From NCBI GenBank assembly GCA_016198755.1, contig JACQIB010000002.1:59004-123003 (forward strand): a stretch of 64,000 nucleotides of DNA, given 5' to 3'. The position numbers were made by a program, and so were the translations under genes. Within the stretch, counting starts at the first letter, position 1. Each line of letters opens with the position of its first letter. This DNA is from Candidatus Aenigmatarchaeota archaeon (lineage in GTDB: Archaea > Aenigmatarchaeota > Aenigmatarchaeia > Aenigmatarchaeales > JACQIB01). The notes under the pieces are model-generated. The model made no database searches. It was given only the letters and a program-made list of their open reading frames with translations, and was not told the origin of the DNA. Shown one piece after another: positions 15,681 through 21,583 of the stretch.

Positions 15681-16367
15681 TTATTTTTTGGCAAATTTCT
15701 TTATAGCCAAAGCTGCCTCTACAGCAACTCCCCATGCAGTATATCCTTTAAGTCCAATCACTTTAGCTCCAAATCCCCTAACAGCATCTTCCATTGCTGT
15801 CCTGTCTTTTGGTTCTTCCTTAAACTCAAACTGCATTTTTTCCCCATGCTCACCGAAAACAAAAGACTTAATTTTATCAGGATTCTTTTTCAGTTCCTTT
15901 CCAAGCAGGTAACGTAGTCTTGCTGTATCTGTTTCAGTGCCTAAAACAAAAACCCTTTCTTTTGGAAAGCCTGAAGCTTTCCTGAACACTTCTGCAATCT
16001 TGCTGCTCGGGTTTGTTGCAACAAAAACATAAGCTTTAGGAGAAATATCCGGAACAACCTTTGCAATACCCTCTATAATTGATTTGTTCTTCTCAAACAG
16101 CTGTTCCCTTGTCATTGTTGAAGAGCGGGCTAACCCAGCTGTAACAACAATAAAATCACTACTTTCTATAATTTCAAGTTTATCTGAGCCTGAAATAACT
16201 GTACTCGGAGAAACCTGTACAGCAGCTCCAGCCAAATCCAAAGCCTCACCTTCAGCAACTCCAGGCACAATATCCTGCAAAACAAGCTCTTCCGGCTTTA
16301 CAATATTCAGCACAGCAAATCCAACAGCAGCTCCAACCCTCCCAGAACCAACTATACTTATCTTCAT
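15681..16367 (-). CDS. mdh: LDH-like malate dehydrogenase, C-terminally shortened
   Basis: GSGRVG, GEALDL, VVTAGLAR...MTR, DTARLR, GEHG; only 228 aa. Confidence 0.8.
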   Translation of the reverse strand: MKISIVGSGRVGAAVGFAVLNIVKPEELVLQDIVPGVAEGEALDLAGAAVQVSPSTVISGSDKLEIIESSDFIVVTAGLARSSTMTREQLFEKNKSIIEGIAKVVPDISPKAYVFVATNPSSKIAEVFRKASGFPKERVFVLGTETDTARLRYLLGKELKKNPDKIKSFVFGEHGEKMQFEFKEEPKDRTAMEDAVRGFGAKVIGLKGYTAWGVAVEAALAIKKFAKK

Positions 16368-17110
16368 TTTCTCACCTTTACTATTTCAGCTATTGCCCCA
16401 TAAACAGCTTTTCCAGCAATACTTGAATAGAGTTCATCCAATCCCGCGACTCCAATCGGAGTAAACTCAACAAAATCAATTGCACAAAGCTTTCCTGCCA
16501 GTGATTTTACAATTGAAATAAGCTCATTAAATCCCAGCCCTTCAGGCTCAGGATTTCCAACAGCAGGAAGCACAGAAGGATCAAGGCAATCAAAATCAAT
16601 GCTCAAGTAAATAGGGCCAGGCAGATTTTTAACTGCAGAGGCAGAAAGTATTTTTATTTTATTATTTTTAATAAAATTCCCCTCTTTTTTCGAAATAGTT
16701 CTTACCCCATGCAGAAAACAGTTCTTTGCCCCAAGAAATTCTGTCACCTTTCTAAAAACAGCATTATGTCCTTCTCCATCCTCACAGTCAGGATGCGCAT
16801 CCAGACTAAGGAATGTTCTGGGTTTTACAGCTTTAACACAGGGAAATGTTATTGAATGTTCCCCACCCAAAATTATTGGAAATTTCTTTGTTTCTGAGAG
16901 TTTATTTTGCACAATAGCTGAAAGTTCTATGCTATCCTTAGGATAGAAAACACCGAGATCATGAAAAAAAGCCTTTTCGTTCAGATCAACACCGGAAATA
17001 TTTGTTTCCAGTTTTCCAAAAGCAGTTTTAATCATTTCAGGTCCTAAAATACTACCTCTTCTAAATGTCTGAGTTTTATCATAACCAAGCCCTAATAATG
17101 AAAAATCCAT
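16364..17110 (-). CDS. speB: agmatinase/arginase-family ureohydrolase
   Basis: GGEHSIT, DAHPD, SIDFDCLDP..P.VGNPEP.G, DFVEF. Confidence 0.85.
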   Translation of the reverse strand: MDFSLLGLGYDKTQTFRRGSILGPEMIKTAFGKLETNISGVDLNEKAFFHDLGVFYPKDSIELSAIVQNKLSETKKFPIILGGEHSITFPCVKAVKPRTFLSLDAHPDCEDGEGHNAVFRKVTEFLGAKNCFLHGVRTISKKEGNFIKNNKIKILSASAVKNLPGPIYLSIDFDCLDPSVLPAVGNPEPEGLGFNELISIVKSLAGKLCAIDFVEFTPIGVAGLDELYSSIAGKAVYGAIAEIVKVRK

Positions 17111-17159
17111 TGTATCACAAGCGTTTTAAATATAGGCTGCAGTATTTAATAGGTTTGTT

Positions 17160-17954
17160 ATGGCAATAATGAAAAGGTTGTTTGGTATAAAGAAATCTAA
17201 AATAGCTAGTAAACCTACTCCGAAGCCAAAATCTAAACCAAAGGCTAAAATAACGCACAAAACAGCCCCAAAAGCCAAAATAGTACATAAAAAGCCTTCT
17301 ATACCCAGTGTAAAAGTTGAAGTAAAGCAAGCAGCTCCTATATTAGAAGGTATTCCAGATGACAAGGCATTTGAAATGCTAAAAACATCCCATGTGCCAG
17401 TTGTTCCTTTCTTTTCAATTAAAAAAGAGTCTGATATAAAGGAAGCTTTGAAAAAGGTTGGAACTCCAGCCATACTAAAGGTTTATGGTGCGAAAATAGC
17501 CAACAGGACAGAAGTTGGAGGAGTTGTTTCCGTTTCATCCGAAGCTGAGGCAACAGAAGCTTTTAAAAAACTAATGAAAATAAAGGGTGCAGAAAAAGTT
17601 ATTGCACAGAAAGTTCTTACAGGAATAGAAATGATTCTCGGCACAAAATCTGACCAGCAGTTTGGAACAATTGTTTCAGTTGGGTTGGGTGGTGCCTATA
17701 AGGAAATAATAAAGGATGTTGCATTCCGCGTTGTACCTTTTTCAGATTCTGATGCAGAAGCAATGCTAAAAGAATTAAAAGGTTTTGAAGTTATTGCTAG
17801 TGCAGGCAACAAGATCAATGTTCAAAGCTTAAAGGACAATTTAGTTAAGCTCGGAAAGTTTGCAGTGGAAAACAAGCAGATAAAAAGCTCTACAATATTG
17901 TTTTTCTGCAATTCTGATGGGTGCTGGGCTTCTGACGTAGTACTTTCAAAATAA
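17160..17954 (+). CDS. ADP-forming acyl-CoA synthetase beta subunit homolog (degenerate) with Lys/Pro-rich N-terminal extension
   Basis: ATP-grasp pattern P..LKV..TEVGGV, EMILG..D.QFG..GLGG..E..KDV.FR; HK replaced by NR; no DxNP motif. Confidence 0.85.
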   Translation: MAIMKRLFGIKKSKIASKPTPKPKSKPKAKITHKTAPKAKIVHKKPSIPSVKVEVKQAAPILEGIPDDKAFEMLKTSHVPVVPFFSIKKESDIKEALKKVGTPAILKVYGAKIANRTEVGGVVSVSSEAEATEAFKKLMKIKGAEKVIAQKVLTGIEMILGTKSDQQFGTIVSVGLGGAYKEIIKDVAFRVVPFSDSDAEAMLKELKGFEVIASAGNKINVQSLKDNLVKLGKFAVENKQIKSSTILFFCNSDGCWASDVVLSK

Positions 17955-17956
17955 AT

Positions 17957-18193
17957 TTACTGGAAATCCCAGAACTTTTTTTCAAATCCATCAGGCACTA
18001 TACCCAATTCTTCAGAATCTTCCTGCATTTCCCCCTCGCAATTTTGGCAGATTTCATCTGTAACAAGATTTATCCTGAATTTTCCCATATAGGATGCAAA
18101 AACAATTGTTGTTTCTTTCAAAAGAAGCGGATTGTAGAATTGTTGCAGCGGAAAAAGTTCTTTTTGCATAAAGGTATTGTGCTGAAAAAGCAT
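17957..18193 (-). CDS. hypothetical small protein
   Basis: fills the gap between genes; CQNC and acidic tail. Confidence 0.4.
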   Translation of the reverse strand: MLFQHNTFMQKELFPLQQFYNPLLLKETTIVFASYMGKFRINLVTDEICQNCEGEMQEDSEELGIVPDGFEKKFWDFQ

Positions 18194-18276
18194 TTATAAC
18201 AGCAAAAACAGGATAAAGTAATTTCTGTGCAGTAGGAAATCGCGCATTTTTATTCTACCGCACCGAAAAGCTTCAC

Positions 18277-18858
18277 ATGAAAGCAGAATTATTTCTGGAA
18301 TTGCGCAGGCAGGCTGTACATGCCTTTGGAATAGTTGTTGCAATCGGTGTTATGTTCCTTCCACAGGAGGTGTATATAGGAGGGCTTGAATCTGTTCTGA
18401 TATTTTTTGTTTTGCTGTCCGTTTACAAGGCAGGCAAGTTTGTATTCATAGGCAGAATTGGAAAATTATTTCTATTGTTTGCAAAAAAGTTTGAGCGCCC
18501 AGGAGAACTGTTGCTGAGAGGTCCAATAATGTTCTTTGCTGGCGCAACAATAACAGCAATAATTTTTCCGAGTGCTGTTGCAGCAGCCGGAATAGCTGTT
18601 TTAGCACTGGGTGATTCAGCTTCCACTATTATTGGAAAAACTTATGGAAAGCATAAAATTCCATGGGAAGGAAACAGAAGCTGGGAAGGCAGCATAGCTT
18701 TCTTCATTTTTGCATTAGCAGCCTGTTTACTCTTCCAAATTCCAGTGCAAAAAGCATTTGCAGCAGCTGTGCTCTCAGCAATTATTGAGACAATCCCAAT
18801 ATTAGATGATAACCTAACAGTTCCAATAGCTGCTGCTGCAGCAATCCAACTCTTCTAA
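18277..18858 (+). CDS. CTP-dependent dolichol/phytol kinase-like membrane protein
   Basis: ELRRQAVH, LALGDSASTIIG..YG, RSWEGS, DDNLTVP. Confidence 0.88.
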   Translation: MKAELFLELRRQAVHAFGIVVAIGVMFLPQEVYIGGLESVLIFFVLLSVYKAGKFVFIGRIGKLFLLFAKKFERPGELLLRGPIMFFAGATITAIIFPSAVAAAGIAVLALGDSASTIIGKTYGKHKIPWEGNRSWEGSIAFFIFALAACLLFQIPVQKAFAAAVLSAIIETIPILDDNLTVPIAAAAAIQLF

Positions 18859-18907
18859 AGGCAAAAATATATAACACTTAAATAGAAGACCCGCCCATAG
18901 ATTTCTC

Positions 18908-20224
18908 ATGCATGAGCTTGAGAACTTTTTCAATCCAACTTCAGTGGCTGTTATAGGTGCCAGCCATACACCAGGCAAGGTAGGCTATGTTATAGTTGAT
19001 AGCCTTAAAAGCTCTTTTCATGGTAAAATATACCCTATAAACCCTTCTGTTACAGAAATATTGGGTTTACCGGCGTATACATCTGTAAATAACGTTACAG
19101 AGCCAATAGACCTAGCTATAATAGCTGTGCCGGCAGAAACTGTAAATTCTGTTTTAGAAGAGGTTATACAGCACAAAATTAAGTCTGTAATTATAGTTTC
19201 AAGCGGTTTTACAGGCGTTGAAGATAAAGAAAGGTATAAAACACTTGAAAATCTTATTAAGAAGTCAAAAATCCGAGTTATAGGACCTAGCTCCTTGGGG
19301 ACCTTTACAAGTAAGCTAGATATGTTCTTTCTGCCAAGAGAAAGGTTCAAAAGACCTCCTGAAGGTTATATAAGCTTTATAAGCCAGTCCGGATCCGTAG
19401 GAGCAATGCTTTTAGACCTTATTTCTTCAGAAGGTGTTGGTATAAGCAAATTTGCTTCTTTTGGAAGCAGAAGTGATGTGTCTGAAATAGAGCTTTTAGA
19501 CTATTTAGGAAAGGATTTGCAGACCCGTTGTATAGCTCTGTATATAGAATCCCTGAAAGATGGAAAAGCTTTTATTGAAGTTGCAAAGAAAGTTGTAAAG
19601 ACAAAGCCTATTGTTGCACTCAAAGGAGGAAAGGACAGTGCAGAAATATATTCTGCTGCTTTCAAACAAGCCGGAATTATTGAAGCAAAAACAACTGAGG
19701 AATTATTTGATTTTGCAAAGGTTCTTGCAAATCAGCCGCTTCCAGCCTCAAAGAAAATAGCTATTGTAACAGAAGGGAGTGGATTGGGTGTTATTGCTGC
19801 AAATTCTCTTGTTTCCCTTGGGCTTGAGATTGCAGAATTTTCAAAAGAAACAGTAAAACCATTTAAAAATTTAGGATTTACAACACTTCCAAATCCTGTG
19901 GATTTGGGTGGAGAAAGCAATGTTGAGCGCTACCAGAAGGCGTTAGATGCGGTTTTCAAAGACAAGGCTGTCGCAGGAGTTATTTGCATACCTCTTTTCC
20001 AAACACCTTCAATTGAAGATAGTATTGTTGATATTTTAAGAGACTGTAAAATATATGGAAAGCCTCTTATTGTTTGTGCAGCAGGCGGGGAGCACACACA
20101 GAAACTCTCAAGAAAACTGGAAGCTGTTGGTATTCCTGTTTATCAGACTCCTGAAAGGGCAGCAAAAGCAATGTCCATCCTTTCTAAACAGCCTGTACAG
20201 GTTCCAGCTAAAGCCAAAAAGTAA
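18908..20224 (+). CDS. ADP-forming acyl-CoA synthetase alpha subunit homolog lacking the phospho-His loop
   Basis: FFNPTSVAVIGAS..PGKVG, YPINP, ISQSG, KPIVALKGG, NPVDL, PERA; no SHTG segment. Confidence 0.9.
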   Translation: MHELENFFNPTSVAVIGASHTPGKVGYVIVDSLKSSFHGKIYPINPSVTEILGLPAYTSVNNVTEPIDLAIIAVPAETVNSVLEEVIQHKIKSVIIVSSGFTGVEDKERYKTLENLIKKSKIRVIGPSSLGTFTSKLDMFFLPRERFKRPPEGYISFISQSGSVGAMLLDLISSEGVGISKFASFGSRSDVSEIELLDYLGKDLQTRCIALYIESLKDGKAFIEVAKKVVKTKPIVALKGGKDSAEIYSAAFKQAGIIEAKTTEELFDFAKVLANQPLPASKKIAIVTEGSGLGVIAANSLVSLGLEIAEFSKETVKPFKNLGFTTLPNPVDLGGESNVERYQKALDAVFKDKAVAGVICIPLFQTPSIEDSIVDILRDCKIYGKPLIVCAAGGEHTQKLSRKLEAVGIPVYQTPERAAKAMSILSKQPVQVPAKAKK

Positions 20225-20287
20225 GTTCTGCAAAAAGCGAACCCTTAAGTGAAAGAGTTATATACCAGTTTTTTTGAAAGAGAACGA

Positions 20288-21583
20288 ATGCTCCGCTCCA
20301 CATTTTTTGTTTTATTCTCCTCTTTGCTTCTTTTCCCAGCAGTTGTGCAGGCTGTTGTTATAAGTGAAATAATGTATGCTCCCTCAGGTGATTATGGCCC
20401 GTTTTACAATGAATGGGTAGAACTTTACAATCCCTCTGATTCTGAGGAACAGTTAGGAAACTGGATACTTAACGGAACAATAAGCTCTACTTTTATTTTT
20501 CCTAACAATACAAACCTCCCAGCAAAAGGATTTATTATTATATCAAAGAACCTTACCCGCTTTAATGAAGTTTACAGTGCAAGCTGCGAAAAGCTTATAG
20601 ATAATTTTTCTCTGGGAAACAACGGAGACTGGATAGATATATACAGTTTTTCAAACAACTCTTACAAATCCGAGGCTTCAGTAAACTATAAACCTGAATG
20701 GGGAGGCAACAGGACAAACCGTTCTTTGGAAAAGAACAGCACAGGCTATTTTGAAAGCTCTGTTTTAGGCGGAACTCCCTGCTACCAGAACAGCATTATT
20801 CTAACCACAACAACATCTACTACAAACACGGGTTTAACCACAACAACTATTCCCAGCCAAACAACTACTTCCATAAGAGAAACAACAACTACAACTCTTT
20901 CTATACAGGATCAGCAGGATTTTTCAGGCCAGCAGCAAACCTTTGGCAGATGGAAATTTTCCTCTTCTGAGTTTGATAAAGCAGTATTCGGGGATAACAA
21001 AACAATAAGCGGGAGCTTTTACTCTGGTGACGGAAGGTTTGTAAAGCTCTCTTTCGTTTCCTATATTTTCAAGCCAGACTGGATTTCTATTGATAGTAAA
21101 GGCAAAATACTCAGGAGCAACCTTGCAGAAGCTGATACAGCCCAAGTTTTTGAAATGGTTGGCAGAAATGAAACTCTTAATTTTTCTATCCCACTTTTCC
21201 TGTATGAAAACTGCAACTACATATACCCTCCAGGTGAGTATACAGCAAGAGTAAGAGCTTACGAGTATAACAGAACAAGAGATTGGAACCCTGTTGCATG
21301 GAAGGATTTTCCTGTTCTAATAGGAGACAATCCATCCTGCTCAGAGGAGAGGGGCAATATAACAGGAACACCCTTTGCTAAAGAGCAAAATAGAGCCAGT
21401 GGAGCAACAGGATTCTCAATTTTTCCAATAAAAGACTATAATGTGGTAATAGCAGGTGCTGTTATTCTGGTTTCAGCTCTTTTGCTAAAATATAGGAAAA
21501 AATTCACACAGCAACAGTATCGTTCAGGAACTTCTGAAGCAAAATTTCCGCAAGCCCAGAATATTCTCCCCACAACTTTTTAG
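20288..21583 (+). CDS. lamin-tail-domain surface protein with Thr-rich linker and C-terminal TM
   Basis: signal peptide, VVISEIMY.P..NEWVELYN, L.N.GD, GTP. Confidence 0.8.
   Translation: MLRSTFFVLFSSLLLFPAVVQAVVISEIMYAPSGDYGPFYNEWVELYNPSDSEEQLGNWILNGTISSTFIFPNNTNLPAKGFIIISKNLTRFNEVYSASCEKLIDNFSLGNNGDWIDIYSFSNNSYKSEASVNYKPEWGGNRTNRSLEKNSTGYFESSVLGGTPCYQNSIILTTTTSTTNTGLTTTTIPSQTTTSIRETTTTTLSIQDQQDFSGQQQTFGRWKFSSSEFDKAVFGDNKTISGSFYSGDGRFVKLSFVSYIFKPDWISIDSKGKILRSNLAEADTAQVFEMVGRNETLNFSIPLFLYENCNYIYPPGEYTARVRAYEYNRTRDWNPVAWKDFPVLIGDNPSCSEERGNITGTPFAKEQNRASGATGFSIFPIKDYNVVIAGAVILVSALLLKYRKKFTQQQYRSGTSEAKFPQAQNILPTTF

Follow-up and report, generated by a model that had tools for sequence, protein, structure and literature searches.

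The locus described here raises the question of what becomes of an ADP-forming acetyl-coenzyme A (CoA) synthetase (ACD) when both of its subunits have lost the histidines that carry phosphate. It lies in a stretch of 64,000 nucleotides, hereafter called the window (contig C6, positions 59004-123003), from a Candidatus Aenigmatarchaeota genome of 890,842 bases in 6 contigs, with a completeness of 89.46%. An initial annotation, made from the DNA letters, noticed that both catalytic histidines were gone while the reading frames and the fold seemed intact, and it preferred a non-catalytic role to decay. Our analysis leads to much the same answer: we think it rather probable that the pair is a non-catalytic, stand-alone pseudoenzyme that was derived from ACD and has been kept by selection in a small Aenigmatarchaeota-like DPANN clade. 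The genes of the locus follow one another on the + strand as an ATP-grasp protein, a membrane protein and a CoA-binding protein, with lengths given in amino acids (aa):

17160-17954, + strand: homolog of the ACD beta subunit, apparently catalytically degenerate, 264 aa (Pfam ATP-grasp_5, 113.8 bits, 1e-32; match to 4xyl_B, 1.1e-27)
18277-18858, + strand: dolichol/polyprenol-kinase-like membrane protein, 193 aa, so called from the names of its homologs
18908-20224, + strand: homolog of the ACD alpha subunit with domains 1, 2 and 5, without the phosphohistidine loop, 438 aa (Pfam CoA_binding_2 and Succ_CoA_lig)

By their Pfam domains and best NCBIfam models, which are those of ACD, the two outer genes encode genuine homologs of the ACD beta and alpha subunits. 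The closest homologs of both genes bear Aenigmatarchaeota names in their records. The domains are split between alpha (1, 2, 5) and beta (3, 4) as in the two-subunit archaeal enzyme (EC 6.2.1.13) of Ca. Korarchaeum cryptofilum (ACD1, 4xyl/4xym) and Pyrococcus (PH0766, 2csu), and the window alpha is 32-36% identical to the solved ACD alphas and 52-60% identical to intact ACD alphas of related Aenigmatarchaeota. All of the best NCBIfam models score below their cut-offs: the ACD alpha model TIGR02717 gives alpha 391.7 bits against an equivalog cut-off of 567.15, NF045494 gives 302.6 and 118.9 bits against 1200, and the archaeal acyl-CoA ligase models give 118.9 to 318.8 bits against 1200-1300. 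Two relatives carry the same three genes, which gives three lineages for comparison. In the first, from ENA, alpha (P0190), beta (P0122) and the middle gene (P0154) are 94%, 83% and 88% identical to those of the window and share one contig of 31,876 bases; in the second, from NCBI, the values are 86% (P0002), 75% (P0123) and 77% (P0155), on one contig of 116,649 bases.

The phosphate relay of known ACDs is set out in excerpts of two studies (PMC11494057, PMC13018889). A histidine of the ATP-grasp domain (H535 in Nmar_0206, H69 in Nmar_1309) takes the gamma-phosphate as first phosphoryl acceptor, and a histidine on a swinging loop (H256 or H503) receives the phosphate from it and carries it about 30-40 Å to the CoA site. 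Ser411 and Asp602 of Nmar_1309 are described, again in an excerpt, as stabilizing the loop at the active site (PMC13018889).

In the window alpha this loop is missing. When alpha is aligned to the solved ACDs 2csu, 4xyl, 9y43 and 8wzu, LKGGKD joins directly to SAEIYSAAFKQAG, and the 16-17 residues that hold the SHTG motif are absent. In a 12-sequence alpha alignment the gap measures exactly 16 columns, in agreement with the clean in-frame deletion of about 16 residues that had been reported, and the reported change of GPNxxG to GPSSLG is also present. The main changes in alpha are as follows:

19631-19642, + strand: junction of the 16-residue in-frame deletion, K242-D243-S244-A245, placed by the alignments and crossed without gaps by contigs of 4 runs
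19283-19300, + strand: GPSSLG replacing GPNC(I/V)G, in which Asn is 99% and Cys 93% conserved among 197 homologs; both Ser are found in all three lineages
19769-19807, + strand: altered site-I motifs of domain 5, TEGSGLG (was TDGGGFG) and Asn299 (was an invariant Asp); Gly291 and Asp299 are 100% conserved in the 197 homologs and changed in all three lineages

Alignment to homologs also shows LGGES where they have LTGDA. The extent of the change can be judged from the 100 alpha columns that are at least 90% conserved among the 197 other alpha homologs. All three lineages retain 76 of them; the 24 changed columns comprise 7 in the deleted loop, a second small deletion, and substitutions that cluster in active-site motifs, namely at Asn128 and Cys129 (GPNC), in the SGFxExG stretch, and at Asn187, Gly291 (TDGGG), Asp299, and Thr334 and Asp336 (LTGD).

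The beta subunit has lost its part of the relay as well. Its IANRTEVGGV aligns with vvHKSDVGGV of 4xyl_B and iiHKSDAGGV of 8wzu, in agreement with the reported NRTEVGGV for HK(S/T)xxGGV, and the C-terminal DxNP is absent as had been noted:

17502-17504, + strand: codon of Asn115, at the place of the ATP-grasp histidine (aligned, counting along the alignment, with the His of 4xyl_B and with H535 of 8wzu/Nmar_0206)
17883-17900, + strand: place of the ExDxNP motif, reading K-S-S-T-I-L (in 29 homologs its Asn and its Pro each reach 97% conservation, and all three lineages have replaced both)

Histidine occupies the Asn115 column in 28 of 29 other beta homologs, while the clade relatives P0122 and P0123 show Asn and Ser there and have likewise lost DxNP. 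In ATP-grasp enzymes the ExDxNP motif has a part in binding metal and nucleotide. Toward the C-terminus of beta, Val stands where homologs have a conserved Arg. Among 37 family-conserved beta columns, 27 are retained in all three lineages; 8 of the 10 changed columns belong to the His motif, to ExDxNP or to the C-terminal Arg, and the other 2 are conservative exchanges (Val/Ile and Leu/Ile). Outside the clade, the sister-group beta P0137 reads FASASN--- at the His motif, with the His lost and LNP kept, and in its sister P0128 the His is kept and Val replaces the Asp of DxNP. The beta site may have begun to erode before the deletion in alpha.

With neither phosphate carrier left, the ATP-grasp motif lost and the phosphate site partly gone, the relay by which acetyl-CoA + Pi + ADP yields acetate + CoA + ATP should be unable to run as it does in known ACDs. 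Unlike an active ACD, the pair combines the absence of the loop phosphohistidine, the ATP-grasp His and ExDxNP with altered phosphate-site motifs and scores below the equivalog cut-offs. It descends from the ACD family without being fileable as an ACD enzyme.

The window comes from a metagenome-assembled genome (MAG), and an error of assembly or binning could in principle imitate such losses, a danger that the initial annotation had itself pointed out. We therefore compared the locus with Logan contigs, which were built by an independent assembler, from 4 runs of one groundwater study that is possibly the source of the window DNA. The contigs of all 4 runs span 17100-20300 in single pieces at a depth of 10.7-38.8, with 0 differences and 0 gaps. 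No RNA run was listed among those that carry the stretch. That all four runs belong to one study, and maybe to the source itself, leaves this agreement open to a shared origin, but the two differing relatives come from other sources, and P0190 and P0002 both show the identical 16-residue gap together with GPSS. Since two separately assembled relatives share the changes and the contigs of the 4 runs agree, the loop deletion and the beta changes are not an artefact, an explanation to which we give almost no weight. In the same samples (runs X1-X4), deeper contigs (20-140 as against 11-39) match only 19637-19681 and translate to ..LSHTGSLAG just before that point, which points to an ACD with an intact loop in a neighboring member of the community.

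The deletion is rare as well as real. Of the 120 top-ranking alpha homologs, P0001 and P0002 alone have 438 aa, and the others have at least 451 aa. The His is kept at 165 of 167 related loci (80 of 80 in a first genome scan, 85 of 87 in a search of relatives and a second scan), a count in which 2 loci fall short of the site and some contigs appear twice. The initial annotation had suggested searching relatives for the deletion together with the His change, and the two other assemblies share this combination. The DNA of the two relatives was sought in the genome contigs, in 40 related genomes and in metagenome contigs and was not found there; the nearest other match reached 50-60% identity, and the deletion occurred in none. 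A 49-residue query across the junction, run against 1.84 billion representatives, returned 49 matches, one of which (P0225) crosses the junction without a loop; among the others, P0213 retains SHTG and P0206 is an unrelated protein. P0225 (L196 52-1323) is an unrelated loop-less ACD alpha homolog of 423 aa, 35% identical, which comes from a bacterial MAG and sits at the end of its contig of 10.7 kb. It retains GPNC and GGG, and no beta gene follows it. Its nearest relatives are Nitrospirota sequences, at most 43% identical, which probably have the loop because their matches run about 35 residues longer.

Whether the disabled pair has been left to decay or is still held in shape can be asked of the three lineages, which split after the deletion, so that their differences report evolution since the loss. 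We gauged constraint by comparing them at the protein level, using site classes, branch lengths and the neighboring gene. Between the window alpha and P0002, the columns that keep the consensus (at least 90%) differ at 2 of 78 positions, against 59 of 360 elsewhere (Fisher p 0.0005); for P0190 the counts are 0 of 78 and 26 of 360. The pattern is the same in 15 active pairs of 83-89% identity (shown from 552), which differ at 0-2 of 97-99 conserved columns and at 53-81 of 352-359 others. In beta, 1 of 27 conserved columns differs as against 40 of 173 elsewhere (p 0.019). A FastTree phylogeny of 200 alphas recovers the clade as monophyletic with support of 1.0 and a stem of 0.30, and its root-to-tip distances of 0.53-0.54 compare with 0.49 +/- 0.11 in 17 active neighbors. 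The alpha proteins are 86-94% identical between the genomes, as against 77-88% for the adjoining kinase-like gene. Three fragments of 116-150 bases from a strain about 88-90% identical (at 80% likeness) fall in the beta arm, the middle gene and the 3' end of alpha; they lie outside the conserved domains and offer very few codons, with 4 synonymous and 4 non-synonymous differences in the beta arm and 6 and 5 in the middle gene.

These comparisons bear directly on the view that the genes are young pseudogenes, open by chance and functionless, that are decaying slowly after an acetate-forming pathway was lost. Such a view would fit the loss of function in both subunits together and the further drift of motifs in the third lineage. 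It fits poorly with frames that are open in all three lineages, with a roughly sixfold slower evolution of conserved columns than of the others, which active pairs show too, and with an alpha of normal branch length that is more conserved than its neighbor gene. DPANN genomes of 0.9 Mb, moreover, seldom keep 2.1 kb of dead DNA. The preference for a non-catalytic role over decay that was expressed at the outset is thus upheld by protein-level constraint in three lineages: the pair looks to be under constraint in all of them, and some function apart from ACD catalysis is more probable than decay. With its catalytic residues lost and its sequence apparently still constrained, the pair would qualify as a pseudoenzyme.

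The metabolic surroundings of the pair offer the decay view some further support. Pfam searches of the 89%-complete genome with POR_N, AMP-binding and Thiolase_N, and a search for acetate kinase, found none of them. Since pyruvate:ferredoxin oxidoreductase (POR), AMP-forming synthetase, thiolase and acetate kinase were not found, the classical supply of substrate may be gone. The lack of POR_N is not special to this genome, however: it is present in 33 of 41 related genomes but in only 2 of the 6 others of the same family, and all 6 of these have an alpha match. The His loop could be read in 2 of the 6 (G001 and G005), one of which is without POR. A specific tie between the loss of ACD function and the loss of POR was therefore rejected, because POR_N is also missing from 4 of the 6 other genomes of the family. 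Taking both sides together, we regard functionless decay as quite improbable.

No second ACD that could take the place of the altered one was found in this 89%-complete genome. As the initial annotation had proposed, we looked for one, and searches with Succ_CoA_lig, CoA_binding_2 and ATP-grasp_5 matched only the window locus and two loci of the succinyl-CoA synthetase (SCS) type. One of these is a succinyl-CoA synthetase pair with GHAGA, and the other is an SCS-like pair followed by citryl-CoA lyase; they lie in this same genome at C5:58960-62385 (L002) and C3:102930-106358 (L003). Succinyl-CoA and citryl-CoA synthetases belong to the same superfamily as ACD, with its phosphohistidine mechanism and with flavodoxin-like and CoA-binding domains in common, and both look intact here, with GHAGA motifs. 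They differ in their division into alpha (1, 2) and beta (3, 4, 5) and are distant in sequence (E 4e-12 between the window alpha and SCS alpha), and the SCS-type pairs are paralogs, not substitutes for ACD. Citrate cleavage may be a route to acetyl-CoA. The succinyl-CoA synthetase pair is followed by an open reading frame (ORF) of 488 aa that resembles HMG-CoA reductase only weakly, at 59.8 bits where the cut-off is 441.8.

Alpha retains the motifs of the CoA pocket (GAS..PGK, YPINP and VPAE) and also SQSGS and NPVDLGG, and the first of these can be located as follows:

18947-18988, + strand: kept Rossmann CoA-binding motif AVIGASHTPGKVGY, with G17, A18, S19 and K24 conserved; Lys24 aligns with R26 of PatZ (alignment to 9it0)

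An AlphaFold2 model of alpha, built on a 65-row alignment, has a mean pLDDT of 89.9 and a pTM of 0.89, and in this sense the claim of an intact fold is borne out by prediction. In the model a short turn (240-244) links strand 235-239 to helix 245-255 at the deletion. Foldseek places 9y43, 2csu and 4xyl/4xz3 at the top, with template modeling (TM) scores of 0.86-0.91, and gives PatZ 0.85. Alpha stops at residue 438 without an extra domain, and the PAKAKK tail that had been noted at its end is present.

A model of the two subunits together, another suggested check, predicts an interface between them. The complex scores an ipSAE of 0.64 (0.64, 0.62 and 0.64 in the separate runs) against 0.00 for the best control, at least 97% of contacts are common to the runs, and the partner pLDDT does not fall below 83. 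The ipSAE mark is reached by 116 of 157 solved complexes and by 2 of 215 mismatches, counts that are rough here since custom alignments were used. The score may show likeness and not binding, because the alpha-beta complex of ckcACD1 has already been solved. The predicted contact on the alpha side is the following:

19550-19669, + strand: predicted alpha-beta interface, alpha residues 215-223 and 244-254, from the complex model; invariant among the three lineages

On the beta side the interface would involve residues 165-171 and 187-201, which are nearly invariant among the three betas.

The closest known parallel is the ACD-like regulatory domain of type I/II protein lysine acetyltransferases (Pat, PatZ/YfiQ; 9it0, 9isq), which the initial annotation had already brought into the comparison, and aptly so. 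According to excerpts of two papers (PMC8556138, PMC12184503), this domain is inactive for want of the His (H254 of ACD1 corresponds to L245 of PatZ), acts as a sensor through acetyl-CoA bound in its CoA-binding domain, and gates a fused GNAT domain. Both cases are conserved ACD-derived modules without the catalytic His, and PatZ reads GPNS for GPNC where the window alpha has GPSS. The differences are considerable. PatZ is a single bacterial chain with a GNAT domain, whereas the window encodes two separate subunits in a DPANN archaeon with no fused or adjacent output domain; PatZ keeps the loop with its His substituted, whereas the window alpha has the loop deleted; and the two are only about 26% identical. 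In an excerpt on PatZ, K23, R26 and R81 bind acetyl-CoA, and the dead domain still binds phosphate at the old site, as ACD1 does (PMC12184503).

This last observation lends something to a different proposal, in which the pair is still an enzyme and performs chemistry that needs no relay, such as hydrolyzing acyl-CoA, transferring CoA, or using site I of alpha for only the first half-reaction (acyl-CoA + Pi to acyl-phosphate + CoA). The CoA-pocket motifs are retained, as are Ser161 (SQSGS), Asp332 (NPVDLGG) and Glu214, and by counting along the alignment Ser161 and Asp332 correspond to the loop-stabilizing Ser411 and Asp602 named in the excerpt on Nmar_1309 (PMC13018889). A further 35 alpha residues, His396 among them, are the same throughout the clade but turn up in no more than 3% of the 197 homologs, as would fit a new function. 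The residues that line site I (Asn128, Cys129, Gly291, Asp299, Thr334 and Asp336), however, are precisely those that were changed, no acetate kinase that could use acetyl-phosphate was found in the 89%-complete genome, and beta, which would be useless for such chemistry, is still kept. We therefore hold altered catalysis to be unlikely, if somewhat less so than decay.

One feature of beta that had been read as part of a repurposing turned out to have another history:

17160-17351, + strand: Lys/Pro-rich N-terminal arm of beta, residues 1-64, with 18 Lys+Arg, 8 Pro and 1 acidic residue among the first 60

The arm exists as described, but His-bearing betas of related Aenigmatarchaeota have the same or longer arms (P0124-P0140; L099 8526-8800; L103 4172-4400). 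Because His-bearing betas of the phylum carry it, the arm is ancestral there, older than the loss of catalysis and unlinked to it, and its assignment to the repurposing was abandoned. Aenigmatarchaeota betas, including active ones, open with a short hydrophobic motif, MA-[ILF]-[LFM]-x-x-[LF]-[FG]-[GK]-K, which is followed by the polybasic Lys/Pro/Arg arm with 16-35 Lys+Arg within the first 60 residues. In P0139 the arm exceeds 150 residues, and solved ACD betas are without one. An amphipathic helix at the N-terminus was considered and rejected, as the hydrophobic moment of residues 2-13 is reached by 50% of shuffles of the sequence itself and by 13-84% in 20 homologs.

If the pair is indeed a retained pseudoenzyme, we would picture it as follows. 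The alpha-beta complex would still assemble and would probably still bind CoA or acyl-CoA in the retained Rossmann pocket of alpha. By analogy with Pat/PatZ, the complex could act as a ligand-responsive regulator or scaffold, and the basic arm that beta inherited might serve a further, non-catalytic purpose, one that has outlived catalysis. A bolder form of this picture, which we offer tentatively and consider doubtful as it stands, is that the clade's only ACD is now a free-standing two-subunit sensor or scaffold for CoA or acyl-CoA, whose surviving function may be an older moonlighting role exerted through the polybasic arm by binding a membrane, nucleic acid or a partner. Modulation of the intact succinyl-CoA or citryl-CoA synthetase paralogs by the dead subunits is a further possibility.

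Several observations weigh against a pseudoenzyme kept by selection. The clade is small, consisting of three lineages that are at most 14% apart in alpha, and the time since the loss may be short. Beta, with a long stem (0.50), shows less conservation than alpha. In P0002 the SGF motif next to the CoA pocket is lost, and GGV reads EGI in P0123; this further drift hints that some relaxation continues. Only one of the three basic residues with which PatZ binds acetyl-CoA has a basic counterpart in the window alpha, counting along the alignment (Lys24 for R26, with Thr21 at K23 and Thr78 at R81), and R81 of PatZ is also without a counterpart in His-bearing, CoA-binding ACDs. The pair has neither a GNAT nor any other output domain fused to it or beside it, and the two GNAT genes lie on another contig (C2). 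Lastly, the gap between beta and the middle gene holds an ORF on the opposite strand:

17957-18193, - strand: ORF of 78 aa between beta and the middle gene, taken from the ORF list, not known as a gene

Should this ORF be real, beta and alpha would not form one operon and would therefore lie in separate transcription units. It has one CxxC, and a comparison with Pfam gave nothing better than E 0.12.

The gene between the two subunits was correctly described as dolichol/phytol-kinase-like inasmuch as its homologs are labelled dolichol kinase or SEC59/DGK1/VTE5 by their sources, some of them with PF01148; the protein itself has no Pfam match. Its position is another matter. The orthologs P0154 and P0155 sit on the same contigs as the ACD pairs of the relatives, but in two relatives with an intact ACD the place between the subunit genes is taken by another, conserved ORF of about 102 aa (L099 9654-9962; L103 5516-5827), and for that reason the arrangement is specific to the small clade. 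In L099 and L103 an ORF of about 230 aa also lies upstream of beta. Around the window locus, an arginase/agmatinase-family gene of 248 aa (16364-17110, - strand) ends 50 bases before beta on the opposite strand and overlaps by 4 bases a short lactate/malate-dehydrogenase homolog (228 aa, 15681-16367, - strand) whose C-terminal domain is under the Pfam cut-off. A link to an arginine synthetase, suggested by the adjacent arginase-family gene, was dropped, as the paper in question only lists ACDs among its references. Immediately after alpha, 20249-21583 (+ strand) encodes a protein of 444 aa whose N-terminus resembles a signal sequence; it also has a lamin-tail domain (57.8 bits), a linker rich in Thr and, at the C-terminal end, a hydrophobic segment. 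An Rfam scan of the locus gave no match.

Literature searches on ADP-forming ACD, phosphohistidine, Aenigmarchaeota, DPANN and pseudoenzymes turned up, in the papers covered, no description of a free-standing ACD without the His. Dead ACD modules as such are already known; the free, two-subunit, loop-deleted archaeal form appears to be new. It is a clean natural case in which both subunits of a hetero-oligomeric enzyme were disabled together and then kept, and a prokaryotic pseudoenzyme without a fused output domain. At 438 + 264 aa, it offers a compact system for asking what the ACD scaffold does after catalysis.

The finding also has a practical side. In metabolic models of DPANN and other archaea, the presence of ACD is taken as proof of ATP gain via acetate formation. 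Close homologs of the window pair are called "acetate--CoA ligase family" by their sources, and the pair itself would be annotated as ACD. With an annotated ACD that should be unable to run the reaction, the energy metabolism of the lineage would therefore be misread, and the "ACD" of the window should not count as an ATP-yielding step in reconstructions of this lineage. If the proposed sensor or scaffold role is true, it would be a free-standing version of what has until now been known solely from dead ACD modules joined to acetyltransferases, and if an older role borne by the arm has survived, working ACDs across the phylum would do a second job too. The pair also raises the question of whether acyl-CoA sensing by such ACD modules goes back further, and is more widespread, than the bacterial Pat family.

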